The notes beneath the pieces are model-generated. The model searched no databases and was not told where the DNA came from. It saw nothing but the letters and a program-made list of their open reading frames with translations. The translations under genes and the position numbers were made by a program. 64,000 nt of DNA from the IMG/VR virus record IMGVR_UViG_2703718815_000003, one strand, 5' to 3'. How positions within the stretch are numbered: position 1 is the stretch's first letter; every line of letters begins with the position of its first letter. Below, in pieces: positions 3,132-51,983 of this stretch. The DNA comes from a virus (lineage: Duplodnaviria > Heunggongvirae > Uroviricota > Caudoviricetes).

Positions 3132-3443
3132 TCAGGCTATTGCCATCACTGATGCTCTCTGAATCTCTTGCTGGGCCACGCGGTTAACTTCCATCAAAGC
3201 CAGTTCGAGCTGATGTTCCGGCCACATTCTTTGAAATGCCACCCAGCCTTTTCCACGCTGGCGACGAACATTCATTACATAACGAGTAAAGGTGTTTTTA
3301 TCGAAAGATACCGCTGTTTCACGGAACAGACGAATAGAGGTTCCATTGGCAACGATGTCCAGCAAAGTTAATTGAGCAACCAGCGCAGGCTTCTCTTTTC
3401 TCTTCTGGTCTTTGTCCAGACCAAGAACCAATGATTTTTTCAT
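3132..3443 (-). CDS. hypothetical protein (103 aa)
   Basis: Track ORF trimmed to ATG (MKKSLVLG...) with GGAG RBS. Confidence 0.5.
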   Translation of the reverse strand: MKKSLVLGLDKDQKRKEKPALVAQLTLLDIVANGTSIRLFRETAVSFDKNTFTRYVMNVRRQRGKGWVAFQRMWPEHQLELALMEVNRVAQQEIQRASVMAIA

Positions 3444-4559: not shown

Positions 4560-5330
4560 TCTCAACCTCTCTATAGGCGTTAATGCTCACTCCTTCCAGA
4601 ATGTTCTATACGGCGACTATTTCTGTTGGTGAATTGGGTGTGTTGTTCTCTCTGTCGGTGTATGTGGTTTCGTTCGTTTTGCGGTGGTTCTTCTATGGGG
4701 TGTTCTCGTCGTTTTGGTGATTGTTCTTCTCCGTGTATGGAGTAATGGCAGGTGGGCGATTCCTTTCGTTGTTGTGTTTGAGTTGTTTGTCTGGAGTGTG
4801 TGAAAGGCTTTTGTAGTTATTCGTGTATTGGGTAATGGCATTTCCCGTGATTGTTATGTTTCGTGTCTTTTGGGATTGAGAGAATCCTTGCGGTTACAGG
4901 CTTCGTTGGGGTTTCAGTGATTCTGGTGTTTCTTCGCTGTTTGGGGAATGGCGTGTCGTGGGTATCGCGCGTATGAATGTTTTCGGATTGCCTGTGAAAG
5001 TTAGGTTGGTTGTCCGGTAGCCTGGGGAGAAGAGGTGGGTTGTTTTTGGAAATGGCATGTGTGTTATTTAGTTGTTTTGTTATGCCTGAAAATAAGTTGT
5101 TTATATGGTTGTGTAACGCAACGGGAGCGATTTTGAGCGTGTGTTTTTGTTGGTAGTGTGTTGGGTCGTCTGTGGTGAAAATTGGACGCTGTGGCGCTGT
5201 CTGCTGCGTAGAGTTGCGGGTATAAGAAGTGATGTGTGAAAACGTCAATTTTTTAGACCAAATCGGGTGAAAGCGTTGACGTTTCGTTGATCTGTTATTT
5301 AGTTGTTTTCTTATTTGTATAAACAACCAT
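4560..5330. other. GT-rich strand-skewed ORF-poor tract
   Basis: Plus strand almost devoid of C with many GG/GGG runs; only low-complexity T/H/K/P-rich minus-strand ORFs. Confidence 0.5.
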
Positions 5331-21176: not shown

Positions 21177-21199
21177 ATAGGTAAACACTTACTTACTAT
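21177..21199. promoter_or_regulatory. class II palindromic motif
   Basis: gataggtaaacacttacttactat. Confidence 0.4.
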
Positions 21200-21786
21200 T
21201 TATTATAAACAAAACCAATATCTTTCTTGTGAGGCATATCTGCTGCTGAAAAAGCTGCGATCTTCGCGAGTCGATCACATATTTCATTTTCACGATGCCC
21301 GGCGTGACCTTTAACCCACTTCCAGCGAACATTATGTCGACTTGCGGCCTCATCCAGACGCTTCCACAGATCAACATTCTTTACCGGTTTTTTGTCAGAA
21401 GTCATCCATCCATTGCGTTTCCACCATTTCATCCACTGTGTCATGCCGTTTTTCAGATACTGGCTATCAGAGTGCAAAATAACGTTGCATGGATATTTCA
21501 AACGCTCCAGCCCGATAAGTGCCCCCATCATCTCCATGCGGTTATTGGTGGTGCTATGAAAACCATCTGAGAACTCGCGTTCCTCACCACGATACTGGAG
21601 AACTATACCGTAACCGCCCGGGCCACCCGGATTTTTAAGGCAAGAGCCATCACTGAAGATTTTCACGGTTTTAAGCTGGGGATTGAACTCTACGACAGGC
21701 GTTGTGGAATTGGTGCGGGGAGAATTTTTGTTTTTGGCTTTTTTGCGAGTTTTTTCTTGCGATCGGGCTGGTGTCTTCGTCGTCAT
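21196..21786 (-). CDS. rnhA: ribonuclease HI
   Basis: Trimmed to ATG with AGGAG RBS; [18 protein letters not shown]...TNNRMEMM...HSDSQY...VKGHAGH; N-terminal basic extension about 40 aa. Confidence 0.9.
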
Positions 21787-21879
21787 ATAAACTCCTGAAT
21801 CAAGCGCCGCGCCGATTTTTTTTCCTCGCGCGTGCGCACACGCGTGCGTGTTAATAATTATTAAAATAAACAAATTACT

Positions 21880-22370
21880 TCCCAGAACAGGTTTTTATAA
21901 ACCTGAACTGAACGAACGAAGTGAGTGAAGTTCACCTCGAACGAAGTGAGAGGTTGTCTTTTCAGGTAATACTCTCCCAGGGAGGTGAGTATAAAAATCC
22001 CTCACCAACCTGGTCGTTTCATAACCTGAAAAGTTATGGTCTAAGTCTACTGCCAGCTTAGACTTGGGAAGTTATGGATGACAGCACCCCAGAACCGAGA
22101 TCTTCCCACACTTTATGAAGGGGAGTACTGGATTCAACCTCTCGAAACACCCCAGACTCGACAATCATAAAGTGACCCTTGTCTCCGCTCACTTTGGTTC
22201 CCCCTTCCCCGACACCTAAACGGCACCAGTTCTACGCTGGTAGTGAGCTTTTTTAAACCTGACGCCAGTGACGCTTACCCCCACCCATCAGGTCGAGTCT
22301 CCAGTCTACGACTGGAAACTATCAGATCTTAGCACTTACAATTCACTTTATGAATAGTTTGTACTTATCT
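21880..22370. other. ORF-free structured intergenic region (about 490 bp)
   Basis: No ORF of 60 aa or more; direct repeats CGAACGAAGTGAG x2, AAGTTATGG x2; several stable hairpins. Confidence 0.4.
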
Positions 22371-22373
22371 ATC
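22361..22373. promoter_or_regulatory. class II motif (partial)
   Basis: gtacttatctatc. Confidence 0.3.
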
Positions 22374-22602
22374 ATTGTGATTGATTATTTTCTCTACCAT
22401 GTAGTTGAACATTCAAGGCAAACACCTCATTGATCAACTCACCTAAAAGCTGTTCAACAAGTTCGCGATGCTCGCCAAGATGCAAGCACTTAATTGCCCA
22501 TTCGTACAAGTTGAAAGCCTGCTCACGATCTTTCATCATTTCACGAGCCTGGGCCAGAAAATCGCTCTCTACGAGCGCAACGACATTAGTCGGGTATGAC
22601 AT
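22372..22602 (-). CDS. hypothetical protein (76 aa)
   Basis: Track ORF trimmed to ATG (MSYPTNVV...) with AAGGAAACC RBS. Confidence 0.45.
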   Translation of the reverse strand: MSYPTNVVALVESDFLAQAREMMKDREQAFNLYEWAIKCLHLGEHRELVEQLLGELINEVFALNVQLHGRENNQSQ

Positions 22603-22705
22603 GTTGGTTTCCTTAAAGTGGTTCATAAAATCGATTTTAAAGCGTCTGGGAAGGGGTTCTAGTGGATTCTGTAGTGATGTTCAGGTCTGGAGTCTCTGAT
22701 ACAAA

Positions 22706-22787: not shown

Positions 22788-23381
22788 CTAAGCAGCCTTC
22801 TTTGATGGTCTTTTTTTCCTGATCACATTCGCAGGATCATACCCTCCCAGACTTTTCATGACGTCCAAAGGGATCTTGCTTATAGAGTGCCCAGCGTCCT
22901 GACAGAATCCTCGAAAAACAACGAGCATACTGCCACCTGGGTTGATGTTTACTTCTACCTGACCCAGATTGACGTCAGGCTCGACAAACGCTACGCGGCC
23001 ACCAGACAGAATAATCGTCTCATTCGCACACTCTGTTGCACGCTCATACCACTTTGTATCTAGGGATTGAGGAATTAGCATCACTGTTGTAACTCCGCGA
23101 GCCTGCTCACGTATAGCCGCATCAATCCAGGGGGAGATTTTGGAGTAGGGTGGATTGAGGAAGGCAATTGTACCTGGCTGTCCCCATTCAGATTTCAAAG
23201 CATCACGCTCAACGCCTATGAAATTAGGCAGCTTTGCATTGTCCTTGTTGCAGGCAACGTCAACATCAAATGTCACTCCAAGATAACGTTGAATGGCAGA
23301 AAACAGCCAGTCAGGTGTTCTCCAGAGGTCACGAAGAGAGTTGTCGCGCTTTCGCTGTTTGATTTTTTCGGCTGCAATCAT
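22788..23381 (-). CDS. phage-type DNA N6-adenine methyltransferase (Dam-like)
   Basis: 197 aa; WRTPDWLF...FLNPPYS (NPPY motif). Confidence 0.75.
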   Translation of the reverse strand: MIAAEKIKQRKRDNSLRDLWRTPDWLFSAIQRYLGVTFDVDVACNKDNAKLPNFIGVERDALKSEWGQPGTIAFLNPPYSKISPWIDAAIREQARGVTTVMLIPQSLDTKWYERATECANETIILSGGRVAFVEPDVNLGQVEVNINPGGSMLVVFRGFCQDAGHSISKIPLDVMKSLGGYDPANVIRKKRPSKKAA

Positions 23382-48464: not shown

Positions 48465-51400
48465 TCACGACTTAATAGTTTCTGCTACGTCGGCTAATAT
48501 CGCTTCTAGTCGTTCTCCCTCTTCAGGTCTGAAGTAAAGAATGTTGGGGTTAAACCCGTAAAAGACTGTAACGTCAAGGTCTGGAAGATACTCCTTCCTA
48601 CCGACTAAATCGGATGGCTTGTTTTTGTTGTTAAACAATGCCGTTGCCCGACTGCCACACGTCAGCACATAGGTCGGACGTACCAGATTGATCTCTTCAC
48701 GCATAAAGTCGGTGAACTGGCCGATCTCGTCTTTGGTGTAGTCCTTTTCTTTGTCTTTCACCTTTTTGCAAACGCCTGTGACATAGAGATCGCCCATGCG
48801 CAAATCTCCAGCCGTCAACAGCTTGGCCTTAAAATCGTCGTATCCGTTCTCCATGAAGTAACCGGTTCGAGCATCATTGCCGTTTGCATTGTCCAGAATG
48901 ATCATGATTTTCGGCTTAATACCAATGCTGGGGCGGATTAGTTCATCACCTAAGCCCATTTCAGCCGCCATCCGTGTCATGAGTGCGTTAATTTCAGCCG
49001 ATCGTTTGGGGTTCATCTCAAACGGACGTGAGGCTTTAACTGCGTCTATGACAAGGTTTCCCATCAATTCTGCCTGGTCGCGGAGACGCTCTGGATCAGT
49101 TGCTGGCAGACTGCCAGGCTCGATGGCTGCAAATGCCCCTACTTTTTGCAGCGATTCGCGAACTCGACTATTACAGGCACGTTTCTCGACAGCTTCTTCG
49201 AATTGCGCAAGTGACTCGAATTTGCCGCCAACCTTTTCTCGCGCTCTCATGATGGCCTGGCAGCCATTCTCAGAACACCCCTTCACAGCAGAGAAGGGCG
49301 CATACAGCACCTGGCTGCCATCTTCAAGCGTGCGGATCTCGATTCGGTTTGATGACACGTTAACGTCTGGTGGCAATACGCGAATACCATAGGTCAGCGC
49401 ATCTTTAACCAGCCCCTGGTGTTTATCTTCGCCAAGAATAGTGAGAGCAGCAGCGAAAAACTCTGCGGGGTAATGAGTTTTCAACCACATAGATTGATAA
49501 CTGATTAAGGAGTAAGCAACAGAGTGTGATTTGTTGAACTGGTAGGCACCATTTTTTTCGAATGCGGTCCAGATCTCCTTCGCTTTCATCTCTGATAGCC
49601 CTGGATGTGACGCTGTAACACGTACTGCGTTTATAGGTAGTGTTGCTCCGTGCTCAAGTGCCTCTTCGACAGTTTTCAGAGTTCCGTCTTCGCATTTAAA
49701 ATGTTCCGCACGGTGAATGCGCTGCGTAGTGCCATCTTCCAGTTCAACGTCTATCCAGCCAGCTTGAGCCTGAACGATGAACTTCTCGCCCATGCTCTTC
49801 ATTTTTTCCATGTCCTTTTTGCCGATCGCTTTACGAACACCGTCAGCTTCAGCCATTGTGAAGCCAGCAAGCAATCGAGTCGCGTTCATCGTCTGTTCCT
49901 GATAGAGAATCACGCCATTTGTTTCTGCGGTAAGTTCATCAAGAACGGGGTGTAATGATTCCGGCGTCATAAAGCCTTTGGCGACAGAAACATAATCATC
50001 CAACATGCCTGACTGAATTGGTCCCGGCCGGAAGAGCGCAGTCGTAGCAACAACCGTTTTAAAGCTCATTGGCTCAATTCCACCACCTAAATCTTTAAGC
50101 AGCTTGCGCATTGGGCCTGATTCAAGCTGGAAAACACCTTGAGTGTACCCAGCAGCAAAACCATCCAGCACCTTGCGATCTTCAAGAGAAATGGCATCAA
50201 GATTGATATCTTCACCTGTGTTCTCTTTTATGTAGCGTTTTGCACTATCGAGCAAATCGAGAGTTGCCAGACCGAGTACGTCCAGCTTAATTAGGCCCAT
50301 AGCCTCGCAGTAACGCTTGTCAAATGCGATACAACGCGCGTCACCACGGCGTTCAACCGGTGTACGTTCTGTCAGAGGAACACCTGCTACGATCATCCCT
50401 GCCGCATGTCTACCAAAGCCACGCATAAGGCTTTGTAACTTGCAGGCTGCATTGAATGCATCAGGATATTTTGTTGCGTATTTGTCGAGACTTGCCAGTT
50501 GTTCGCGCAGTTCTTCCAATGGAAGGCTATCATCCTCGACGTTCTTCAGTTCTTTTGATACCGCCATATCTGCGGACTCCACACCATAAATACGAGCGGT
50601 GTCACGTAGTGCAGAGGCTGCGCCCAGATATGTGAAGTTCGGAATACCCGCAACGTAATCTTCGCCGTAGCGTTCATTCAGATACTCGATCACTTCATGG
50701 CGACGTGCCTGGCTGAAGTCCAAATCCGCATCCGGCAAGTCGAGACGCTCAGGGTTGATGAAACGTTCAAACAGAAGACCGTGACGGATTGGGTCGACGT
50801 TGGTTATGCCTATGCACCATGCCACCAAAGAGCCAGCAGAGGAACCACGACCAGGCCCAACGGGAATGCCAGTTTCACGACTATGATTCATCAGATCGCG
50901 CACCATCAGGAAGTAACCACAGAATCCCAGGCGAGTCAGCGTGTCCATTTCGTACTTTAGCCGCTCAACATAAACCCTGTTCTCAGAAGCCGGTGGTGTG
51001 TAGCCAAACTCTTTTGTGGTAAGACGTTTACGCAGCCCAGCAACGGCCAGTTTCATCAGAGTTGCAGGCTCGTCGTCTGCCATCTTTGGCAGTGCTGGTG
51101 GCAATTCATGCCAGCGCCATGTGCAGGCATCGATAATGGTATCCTGCGTTGTTGAGGCCATTGCAGCTGTTACCGGCACATCCATGCGAACGGAGAAGGC
51201 TTTAAGCGCCTCAAGGAGATGGCGGCGACCATTGACGGCGTTATCTCGCTGGTGGGGGATACGCAGACGATGCGGCTGGTCGATTTTGATGTTGTTCGTA
51301 ACCATGTGCGCAATGTCTTTAATGTCTGCATCGTCGATCGATTCGTAATAAGCGGGATAGAACGCCACTGGCTCTATTTTCAATGCGCTGGCGACTTTCA

Positions 51401-51983
51401 TCGCCCGGACGTTAATCTGGTCGTAGAATGGGGTAGGATGCGGATAAACCACACTATAGAAGTTGTCTTTTCCACCCGCTGTAATCAGTGTGCTTATAAT
51501 TTTTGCAAAATCGTTGCGTTGGAACACGCTACCGATGTCGGAAGTAAGCAGGATGATGTTGCCTTTGGCATATGTAGAAACCAACTGTTCGAGCGAGAGA
51601 CGCGGTACAAAGTAGAACTGTTCTCGTGTGTTGGCCGCCGTCATTAGTTCGCAGATGTCGCGATATCCTTGCTCATTTTTAATTAGAGCGGTAAACGAGT
51701 AGTTACGTCCCCGCTCTAATGATTCCATACATCTCATAGATTCTTTAGCAAGTTTAGCCCGGTGCTCGTATGTGGGATCATCAACAATGTTTAGTTTCAC
51801 ACCACAAATAACCGCCATGTCGTCACCAGCGGCACGTTGTAGTGGAATAACACTTGCAATATTCATGCTATCTGCTGAAATTACAGCGGTGTAGCCAGCT
51901 TCTCTGGCAATCTTCACCGCGTTTTCTGCTTTTAGAGCCGACTCCCCAAGTGAGAAGTCAGTTCGAACCATCAGTGCCTTCAT
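48465..51983 (-). CDS. dnaE: DnaE-type DNA polymerase III alpha subunit
   Basis: 1172 aa; N-terminal PHP domain; GFCGYFLMV...GPGRGSSAGSLVAW...LLFERFINPER and ILYQEQ...YQFNKSHS cores; about 60-aa insertion before YQFNKSHS. Confidence 0.9.
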   Translation of the reverse strand: MKALMVRTDFSLGESALKAENAVKIAREAGYTAVISADSMNIASVIPLQRAAGDDMAVICGVKLNIVDDPTYEHRAKLAKESMRCMESLERGRNYSFTALIKNEQGYRDICELMTAANTREQFYFVPRLSLEQLVSTYAKGNIILLTSDIGSVFQRNDFAKIISTLITAGGKDNFYSVVYPHPTPFYDQINVRAMKVASALKIEPVAFYPAYYESIDDADIKDIAHMVTNNIKIDQPHRLRIPHQRDNAVNGRRHLLEALKAFSVRMDVPVTAAMASTTQDTIIDACTWRWHELPPALPKMADDEPATLMKLAVAGLRKRLTTKEFGYTPPASENRVYVERLKYEMDTLTRLGFCGYFLMVRDLMNHSRETGIPVGPGRGSSAGSLVAWCIGITNVDPIRHGLLFERFINPERLDLPDADLDFSQARRHEVIEYLNERYGEDYVAGIPNFTYLGAASALRDTARIYGVESADMAVSKELKNVEDDSLPLEELREQLASLDKYATKYPDAFNAACKLQSLMRGFGRHAAGMIVAGVPLTERTPVERRGDARCIAFDKRYCEAMGLIKLDVLGLATLDLLDSAKRYIKENTGEDINLDAISLEDRKVLDGFAAGYTQGVFQLESGPMRKLLKDLGGGIEPMSFKTVVATTALFRPGPIQSGMLDDYVSVAKGFMTPESLHPVLDELTAETNGVILYQEQTMNATRLLAGFTMAEADGVRKAIGKKDMEKMKSMGEKFIVQAQAGWIDVELEDGTTQRIHRAEHFKCEDGTLKTVEEALEHGATLPINAVRVTASHPGLSEMKAKEIWTAFEKNGAYQFNKSHSVAYSLISYQSMWLKTHYPAEFFAAALTILGEDKHQGLVKDALTYGIRVLPPDVNVSSNRIEIRTLEDGSQVLYAPFSAVKGCSENGCQAIMRAREKVGGKFESLAQFEEAVEKRACNSRVRESLQKVGAFAAIEPGSLPATDPERLRDQAELMGNLVIDAVKASRPFEMNPKRSAEINALMTRMAAEMGLGDELIRPSIGIKPKIMIILDNANGNDARTGYFMENGYDDFKAKLLTAGDLRMGDLYVTGVCKKVKDKEKDYTKDEIGQFTDFMREEINLVRPTYVLTCGSRATALFNNKNKPSDLVGRKEYLPDLDVTVFYGFNPNILYFRPEEGERLEAILADVAETIKS

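Follow-up and report, generated by a model that had tools for sequence, protein, structure and literature searches.

A strongly conserved, unannotated interval of SSU5/pHCM2-type phage-plasmids is very likely a structured RNA gene

We analyzed a stretch of viral DNA of 64,000 nucleotides (nt) (IMG/VR record IMGVR_UViG_2703718815_000003; hereafter the window), concentrating on a gap of about 490 bp between an RNase H gene and a small gene, in which an initial annotation made from the letters alone had marked an open reading frame (ORF)-free structured region and had suggested a non-coding RNA, a second (lytic) origin or a packaging site. Judged by its sequence, the window is an SSU5/pHCM2-type phage-plasmid of Escherichia coli, because the region is 98-99% identical to that of the Escherichia phages CMS-2020a, PhiR41_1 and Cyrano; its identity with Salmonella phage SSU5 around the gap is about 84%. 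The gap is very likely a functional structured RNA gene, and we read it in this way because of its extreme conservation, the covariation of its paired positions, the strand on which pairing is kept, the conservation of a promoter and a high, discrete read count in lysogens of E. coli LF82. All the genes near the gap, on both sides, lie on the minus strand, and those that adjoin it are the following:

22788-23381, minus strand: Dam-type methylase gene, upstream of the small gene in transcription order.
22372-22626, minus strand: small gene for a protein of 84 amino acids (aa), directly upstream of the gap.
21196-21789, minus strand: RNase HI gene from its annotated ATG (the TTG-extended ORF reaches 21873), downstream of the gap and followed by further small genes.

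The 84-aa protein has no relative in Pfam, NCBIfam or the PDB, its sole match being a PHROG of unassigned function, and it therefore gives no clue as to whether the product of the small gene is a partner of the RNA. When genome contigs were searched with the RNase H protein, only the chromosomal rnhA (~60% identity) was recovered, and no phage-plasmid locus. Between the two genes (21874-22371) both strands are indeed free of ORFs of 60 aa or more, the longest reaching 46 aa, and both of the direct repeats reported there were recovered, CGAACGAAGTGAG at 21913-21925 and 21938-21950, and the pair ACCTGAAAAGTTATGG/ACTTGGGAAGTTATGG at 22024 and 22062.

Conservation was measured in a three-way alignment with SSU5 and Klebsiella phage pJN2-26, in which the 100-bp windows across 21900-22199 were 92-98% identical to both phages and 22200-22299 was 90% identical to SSU5 and 75% to pJN2-26, the flanking RNase H, small gene and methylase being only 55-88% identical. 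Among the 722 300-bp windows of the 64 kb compared with SSU5, 21901-22200 ranked first (96.3%; median 77%), and the next best, 51151-51450 (95%), falls inside the gene for a DNA polymerase of 1172 aa (48465-51983, minus strand). Window 16801-17100 (93%) is also among the next most conserved. For a broader comparison we aligned 54 distinct versions, comprising the window, GenBank phages and plasmids, and IMG/VR contigs fetched by a conserved 21-mer; here conservation has sharp edges near 21885 and 22298, with column identities of 90-100% inside and ~70% outside. By these sequence comparisons the core, 21885-22298, is conserved better than any protein gene in the window. The interval first marked at 21880-22370 is thus real, with its borders slightly displaced: the conserved part is this core, and the probable minus-strand transcript runs from ~22319 to ~21860.

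The element is widespread in enterobacterial plasmids. In PLSDB it occurs in 687 plasmids, 665 of them at an identity of at least 90%, carried by Klebsiella, Escherichia, Enterobacter, Salmonella, Citrobacter and Cronobacter. It was found in 232 of 5426 complete E. coli genomes (4%), with 232 of its 234 places on plasmids, and RefSeq/PGAP has no annotation under the element in the 232 E. coli plasmids.

Each strand of the gap folds with a z-score of about -4 against dinucleotide shuffles. Because such a score from a single sequence says little by itself, the analysis turned to the comparison of relatives. RNAalifold predicted 129 pairs in the alignment of 54 sequences, of which 11 show changes on both sides while staying paired, and standard pairs occupy 99.7% of the alignment cells on the consensus structure. 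The covariation score was 0.101, compared to 0.063 with shuffled partners (none of 500 shuffles reached the observed value) and at most 0.028 when partners were slid by 1-3 columns. Double changes were found in helices 1, 2, 3, 8, 14 and 19, and helices 4, 9, 10 and 13 vary through G-U intermediates only. All four hairpins named in the initial annotation were located, AGGTTT/AAACCT, GGTGAG/CTCACC and CCAGT/ACTGG as inverted repeats and GTCTAAG/CTTAGAC as consensus helix 14. The two strands behave differently: at variable pairs, canonical pairing is kept in 99.0% of cases on the minus strand vs 79.9% on the plus strand, G-U is used by 26 variable pairs on the minus strand vs 3 on the plus strand, and the alignment folds better on the minus strand by 30 kcal/mol. 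These strand-specific wobble pairs indicate therefore that the RNA is read from the minus strand.

Alignment of the divergent variants also pointed to a putative sigma-70-type promoter directly after the stop codon of the small gene. The spacing of 17 nt between its -35 and -10 elements is constant while the sequence of the spacer diverges, TAnnAT is kept in the -10 element, and TG precedes the hexamer in most variants. The +1 inferred from it, ~22319, coincides with an invariant G that opens a covarying 5' hairpin with a minimum free energy of -15.3 kcal/mol (z -3.4). On this basis the proposed gene and its parts would be arranged as follows:

21860-22319, minus strand: proposed non-coding RNA gene, about 450-460 nt, from conservation edges, consensus fold and covariation, strand test and LF82 expression.
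22361-22367, minus strand: TAAGTAC motif immediately behind the stop codon that ends the small gene, putatively operator-like.
22349-22354, minus strand: candidate -35 element TTCATA (TTTAAA, TTTACG or TTTACT in other variants).
22326-22331, minus strand: candidate -10 element TAAGAT after TG (extended -10), with variants TACAAT, TAAAAT and TAGAAT.
22297-22319, minus strand: 5'-terminal hairpin (helix 1), of which at least 6 different stem sequences all keep the helix, including G-U pairs possible on the minus strand only.
21885-22298, minus strand: ultra-conserved structured body, with helices 2, 3, 8, 14 and 19 compensatory and helices 4, 9, 10 and 13 wobble-compatible.
21883-21910, minus strand: 3' hairpin CAGG-loop-CCUG (helix 19), with a UA to GC change on both sides.
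21875-21882, minus strand: conserved GGAAGUAA, following the 3' hairpin.
21850-21874, minus strand: U-rich/AT-rich tract and probable transcript end, after which conservation drops, with the drop in expression before RNase H; under an origin model it would be the candidate for unwinding.

The region 21850-21909 has a G+C content of 23%. Overlapping the -35 region there is a palindrome, TAAGTA...TACTTA (22355-22372, minus strand; L002 ~4600-4620; A2 columns 8-27), which takes the form GGTAAGTACTTACC in SSU5 and TAAGTAA-N4-TTACTTA at a second type of RNA locus described below, and which looks like the operator of a regulator.

Expression data for the locus come from a published study of E. coli LF82, whose phage Cyrano is 97-98% identical to the window here and carries an annotated ORF, CYRAN_81, inside the core. 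CYRAN_81 was listed among the prophage genes above background in lysogens (12-fold) and described as a "moron" (PMC9928086, Table 1), and its normalised count of 117 stands against 96 for the repressor, with the small gene at 9.5 and RNase H at 8.4 (PMC9928086, S1 Table). On the log2 scale it went from ~6.9 (LB overnight) through 9.2 (1 h) to 10.3 (macrophages, 6 h), the last against about 5 for both neighbours, whose values lie at 2.6-5.8 throughout (PMC9928086, S1 Table). Read counts at the interval are thus 12-14-fold over those of the neighbours, the drop to RNase H being about 14-fold. We conclude that the interval probably gives an abundant, discrete RNA in the prophage state, separate from both neighbours, the strand of which the counts leave unconfirmed, and that CYRAN_81, published as an expressed "moron" protein, is most likely this RNA, so that its annotation should be corrected. 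Another published "moron", CYRAN_40 (L320:145-357), overlaps tRNA-Thr and tRNA-Ser on the opposite strand, and its signal is probably that of tRNA reads; as these tRNAs lie on the other strand, the LF82 counts are probably unstranded. In the same data CYRAN_43 (L320:1269-1823), which adjoins the integrase and repressor genes, is 723 times above background.

No known RNA family accounts for the element. The covariance-model scan proposed in the initial annotation was run with Rfam 15, and on the isolated interval it gave no relevant family even at E values up to 10, the families covered including ROOL, GOLLD, HEARO, C4, RNAI, 6S, tmRNA, RNase P, riboswitches and ribozymes. Within 21840-22380 the sole matches were two miRNA models (15-16 bits, E 1.7-2.5), ARAGORN found neither tRNA nor tmRNA in the interval, and a scan of the whole window with gathering thresholds, together with ARAGORN, returned only tRNAs, all at 59852-60398. 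Likewise, the literature searched on SSU5, pHCM2 and phage-plasmids holds no description of this RNA. Three further identities were tried and rejected: a type I toxin-antitoxin mRNA, which would be similar in size and structure, since there is neither a small hydrophobic ORF nor an Rfam match; a CsrA sponge, as GGA motifs counted in the sequence are about as frequent as base composition predicts; and a miniature inverted-repeat transposable element, as the core has no terminal inverted repeats.

More distant plasmids, in which the small protein is 44-50% identical to that of the window, show the same arrangement, with methylase and small gene followed by a gap of 570-650 bp without genes and then by RNase H; they comprise pCAV1099-111 and plasmids of Klebsiella pneumoniae and K. 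quasipneumoniae. Searches with nhmmer, using both the single sequence and the profile of 54 sequences, detected no similarity between these Klebsiella gaps and the RNA of the window, and the distant gaps would therefore hold a different RNA, not a diverged copy. These type-2 gaps are highly conserved among themselves and fold into 151 pairs, 17 of them with double changes, and a putative promoter of the same kind as in the window lies right after the stop codon (TTTACT, 17 nt, TATGAT or TATCAT). The putative type-2 RNA is located thus:

L086:3280-3770 (pCAV1099-111); also L088, L089 and L161-L170: type-2 RNA, ~480 nt, with no Rfam match.

L088 has a gene on the opposite strand in place of RNase H and still carries the type-2 RNA, and a Moellerella plasmid has an extra small gene before a gap of ~970 bp and no RNase H after it. 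The occurrence of two unrelated, similarly sized RNAs at the same syntenic site suggests, as far as sequence comparison goes, a slot for interchangeable RNA functions, and on this ground it can be argued that serving RNase H is not the sole purpose of the RNA.

The 3' part of the core contains, on the RNA strand, the 13-mer CUCACUUCGUUCG twice, 12 nt apart, in a stretch that is identical in all 54 sequences. We read the first copy as the loop of a hairpin because unrelated contigs flank the same 13-mer with different complementary stems. The copies in the window and the other loci discussed here are:

21934-21954, minus strand: first 13-mer copy (21938-21950) flanked by ACCU/AGGU, a proposed hairpin with the motif as its loop.
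21905-21933, minus strand: second 13-mer copy (21913-21925) within GAACUUCA...UUCAGUUC, invariant in the family.
L177:8928-9844, L179:3380-3700, L194:1576-2459 and L190:1085-1180: T4-like loci with the twin module near UvsW and gp55.
L208:973-1010, L221:1053-1090 and L316: examples of metagenome loci with CTCACTTCGTTCG as a hairpin loop.

An IMG/VR pattern scan for two copies of the 11-nt core of the motif returned SSU5-like contigs and unrelated ones, among them three families of T4-like phage contigs (with homologues of UvsW, gp55, gp46 and gp47) that carry the motif in a long non-coding gap. In one T4-like family the module is CTCACTTCGTTCG-ATGCCAACTTCA-CTCACTTCGTTCGTTCAG, 93% identical over 45 nt to that of the window, and the intergenic region of its AT-rich contig, compared with the whole GenBank phage collection, matches SSU5-like phages only. 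One T4-like family has two inverted copies that flank ~140 AT-rich bp, with an 18-bp perfect inverted repeat and then U-tracts on both strands, an arrangement that resembles an origin or a bidirectional terminator. The stems of the first copy differ by lineage, ACCU/AGGU here and CUGGU/ACCAG, GUCCA/UGGAC and AACAA/UUGUU elsewhere.

When metagenomes were scanned excluding the SSU5-like spacer, 117 stretches were obtained (L203-L319), in many of which each copy is the loop of its own hairpin, as in CTGCTC[M]GAGCAG-GTGACC[M]GGTCAC. Flanking stems of at least 4 bp occur in 53 of 197 distinct instances, compared to 5.5 expected from re-paired flanks, and represent 34 different stems. On folding, the first C of the motif pairs with its last G, leaving an 11-nt loop with two UUCG tetranucleotides. 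Some of the contigs with the motif look chromosomal, one bearing an alphaproteobacterial small RNA and others ordinary metabolic genes; other metagenome contigs have the 13-mer in tandem arrays with a period of 22-29 nt, which may be unrelated. Few pairs of the flanking stems in the other lineages were informative about the strand. The motif lies in no Rfam family, the T4-like and metagenome loci having been scanned without any relevant family, as were the type-2 loci, and the 13-mer is not mentioned in this sense in the literature searched. Part of it resembles a nanopore adapter; an artefact of sequencing adapters was rejected, since hundreds of independent finished records contain the sequence, the SSU5 record of 2012 among them.

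Two side observations concern the surroundings of the motif. One metagenome site lies 18 nt after a gene for a CPBP protease. In addition, two T4-like families share beside the motif module an element of ~60 nt, AGAGACAGGT(A/T)ACGG(G)ATCCTGTTTGCCACTG...CATCTCTA (L179 ~3300-3370, minus strand, and L194 ~2190-2260), in which two hairpins closed by AGAGA/UCUCU are possible and which has no Rfam match.

The best overall explanation of these results, to which we assign a probability of about 0.5, is an independently transcribed, structured non-coding RNA of ~450 nt that belongs to the plasmid-prophage state and acts in trans. Of the three candidates first put forward, the non-coding RNA is the one that gained strong support, from covariation, strand-specific G-U wobble, the position-conserved promoter and published expression. 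In the mechanism that we propose, a minus-strand RNA would be transcribed from its own sigma-70-type promoter, on the same strand as all its neighbours, and would start with a protective 5' hairpin, and most transcripts would end or be trimmed in the U-rich tract ahead of the RNase H gene. Made in lysogeny at about the level of the phage repressor, the folded RNA would act in trans as a separate transcription unit, its 5' two-thirds providing a scaffold and its invariant 3' module displaying the 11-nt loop C[UCACUUCGUUC]G twice as a recognition site. The partner of the loop would be conserved far beyond the enterobacteria and might be a protein in dimeric or repeated form, or else a complementary nucleic acid. 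We put forward this twin-loop recognition in trans tentatively, as an idea with the odds somewhat against it. A search for targets of the 13-mer (copies or complements with at most 2 mismatches near gene starts) produced no antisense target in the window, nor in SSU5 over its first 100 kb, which argues against self-immunity of the c4 type and favours a protein or a host partner. The wider proposal, that there is an undescribed class of phage-plasmid RNAs of ~450 nt, a second non-homologous class in pCAV/pKpn-type relatives and a twin-hairpin C[UCACUUCGUUC]G module shared across phyla, falls in our estimate just short of an even chance.

Several observations weigh against the RNA acting in trans or against details of the model. 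With respect to the motif, its orientation relative to the flanking genes varies in other lineages, which may leave room for an action at the DNA level; neither the window nor the first 100 kb of SSU5 contains another copy of it or its complement, and the number of complementary 11-mers there is at chance level (20 found vs about 14 expected). With respect to the fold, the twin motif and helices 12 and 15-18, which make up the 3' third, are invariant, so the pairs predicted there are neither supported nor contradicted; the core is at least 90% alike in all 54 sequences, so the covariation comes from few independent events; and the thermodynamic fold prefers a hairpin CGAGGUGA/UCACUUCG, which competes with presentation of the twin loops. 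With respect to transcription, a generic promoter scan made no call at the site because only 8 of 12 consensus positions match, and the case for the promoter therefore rests on positional conservation. A scan of the interval found no canonical intrinsic terminator, we infer both transcript ends, the 5' end from the promoter and the 3' end within 21850-21874, and the LF82 counts probably show abundance and not orientation.

Part of these results could be explained if the RNA were a cis-acting leader or switch of the RNase H operon (a terminator/antiterminator, processive antitermination or a riboswitch-like device) that decides on read-through into RNase H and beyond. In both RNA types the RNA immediately precedes RNase H and shares its strand, the ~14-fold fall in reads from the RNA to RNase H implies regulated termination, and in the invariant 3' part the repeats have mutually exclusive pairings with AAGUGAG, GGAAGU and GAGGUGA, as in a switch. 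However, L088 retains its type-2 RNA without the RNase H gene, a leader of 450 nt that is more conserved than the gene it controls would be unusual, and there is neither a canonical terminator nor a match to known antitermination or riboswitch families, for which reasons we consider a cis-acting role unlikely.

We gave a somewhat smaller chance to an RNA-primed origin, in which the transcript would form a persistent RNA-DNA hybrid near its 3' end and be trimmed to a primer by the adjoining RNase H, in the style of ColE1 RNA II or T4 oriF/oriG. The lytic origin suggested initially thus keeps circumstantial support, from the RNase H gene, the AT-rich tract, the G-rich segments and UvsW, and stands as a minority possibility. 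In its favour, the putative promoter is followed by a folded RNA with the G-runs GGGUGGGGG and GGGGAAGGGGG, the AT-rich tract (23% G+C) comes right after the RNA and the RNase HI gene immediately downstream; SSU5-like phages encode their own helicase, primase, polymerase and ligase; and the T4-like contigs carry the twin motif next to UvsW, one family having the inverted copies around 140 AT-rich bp. In T4, R-loops at oriF are probably processed by the viral RNase H and unwound by UvsW (PMC3016281). Nevertheless, the locus near 22 kb coincides neither with a turn of the cumulative GC skew, which declines almost steadily between ~10 kb and 64 kb, nor with a change in gene orientation, and the repeats form arrays of no more than two, without an iteron array. 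No promoter or terminator like that of the antisense RNA I faces the 5' end, nor is there an RNAI match; the sole plus-strand promoter-like site, 22313-22342, points away from the RNA, and the interval has no plus-strand terminator. Furthermore, uninduced lysogens, in which repA is credited with replicating the plasmid, contain the RNA in abundance, and the 13-mer is found as well at bacterial sites that look chromosomal. T4 R-loop origins do not depend on a particular RNA sequence (PMC3016281), which leaves the near-invariance over 415 nt unexplained. As to an A+T-rich unwinding element behind a promoter, of the T4 oriF kind (PMC3016281), the AT-rich tract comes after the RNA, at about 450 nt from the promoter and not directly behind it.

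Explanations at the DNA level, either a selfish or recombination-prone DNA segment that has recently spread by horizontal transfer or gene conversion, or a protein-binding site in double-stranded DNA (pac, iterons), would fit the sharp borders of conservation, the different sequence in the same slot of relatives, as in cassette exchange, and the behavior of the 13-mer as a dispersed repeat, including tandem arrays, in many metagenome contigs. They are improbable in view of substitutions that preserve pairs with G-U on one strand only, which neither a DNA-level nor a neutral process predicts. The segment also lacks terminal inverted repeats and target duplications, its variants are as old as the split of the host genera and yet differ by only 5-10%, and the region is transcribed well above its neighbours. 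The packaging site that had been suggested can be dropped: the element lies at 78.8-79.2 kb of the 103 kb of SSU5, whose record begins at the terminase genes, so that both are ~24 kb away, and the pattern of substitutions is that of an RNA and not of a DNA site.

Finally, a small protein from the 44-aa ORF CYRAN_81 (22058-22192, minus strand, GTG start), annotated as a coding sequence in phage Cyrano, listed as an expressed "moron" and open in the E. coli and Salmonella variants, can practically be discounted, because the 44-codon frame is intact only in variants of almost the same nucleotide sequence and is disrupted by 1- and 2-nt indels in those of the Klebsiella and L158 types, conservation is just as high over ~280 nt beyond the ORF, no third-position pattern of variation is seen, RefSeq/PGAP annotates nothing there in the 232 E. 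coli plasmids, and a frameshift-corrected ORF across the region was looked for in the variants and not found.

The RNA proposed to act in trans was also compared with known systems. Like ROOL, GOLLD and HEARO, large structured RNAs with no assigned role, it is several hundred nt long, has a multi-helix fold backed by covariation, is found on phages or mobile elements, and is conserved far better than the neighbouring genes. Unlike them, it is carried by enterobacterial SSU5-like phage-plasmids, has a putative sigma-70-type promoter and is expressed in lysogeny, and it shows no match to them in sequence or structure (cmscan, E up to 10); the three families are not known to carry a twin 13-mer module. 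With ColE1 RNA II and T4 oriF/oriG it shares a promoter-driven, folded, G-rich transcript with an AT-rich region downstream, and the origin models for ColE1 and T4 depend on RNase H, the gene for RNase HI being here the next one. It departs from these systems in having no unit like the antisense RNA I, no Rfam RNAI match, no switch of skew or orientation, and a sequence constraint far higher than T4 R-loop origins require.

The antisense RNA c4 of P1/P7 and the CI RNA of P4 are likewise RNAs of a plasmid prophage in lysogeny, c4 has two similar recognition loops (a' and b'), and these RNAs too exist as discrete non-homologous types in related elements. Their sizes are about 77 nt (c4) and about 79 nt (CI), whereas the RNA described here has about 450 nt, no Rfam C4 match and no complementary sites over the window and the first 100 kb of SSU5. 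HK022 put and EAR are, similarly, structured RNAs in a long one-directional operon that act at the RNA level; they have about 70-120 nt and no promoter of their own, and the present RNA has no family match. It is thus best filed with the structured non-coding RNA genes of phages, and is very probably a previously undescribed one.

SSU5/pHCM2-like phage-plasmids are common in clinical Enterobacteriaceae and can carry resistance genes. The most strongly conserved sequence of these replicons would be an unannotated RNA and not a protein gene, made during carriage and raised in macrophages, and as such it would offer a testable handle on the maintenance of phage-plasmids or on their dialogue with the hosts. 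The 13-mer links enterobacterial phage-plasmids with uncultured T4-like phages and soil bacteria. If it had a single reader, that would be a broadly conserved factor so far unconnected to the signal, and the twin-loop module, if our interpretation is true, would be an unrecognised and very widespread nucleic-acid recognition signal across phyla.

Two minor observations were made outside the proposed RNA. Between its 3' end and the start codon of RNase H, at 21801-21849, lie the GC-rich palindromes CACGCGTG and GCGCACGCGC, followed by A8, a cluster that is conserved at ~87% and could be a regulatory site for RNase H; a weak Rfam match there to a hepatitis C virus stem-loop was dismissed as meaningless. 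The four tRNA genes clustered at 59852-60398 (minus strand) are Ser-TGA, Thr-TGT, Tyr-GTA and Asn-GTT.

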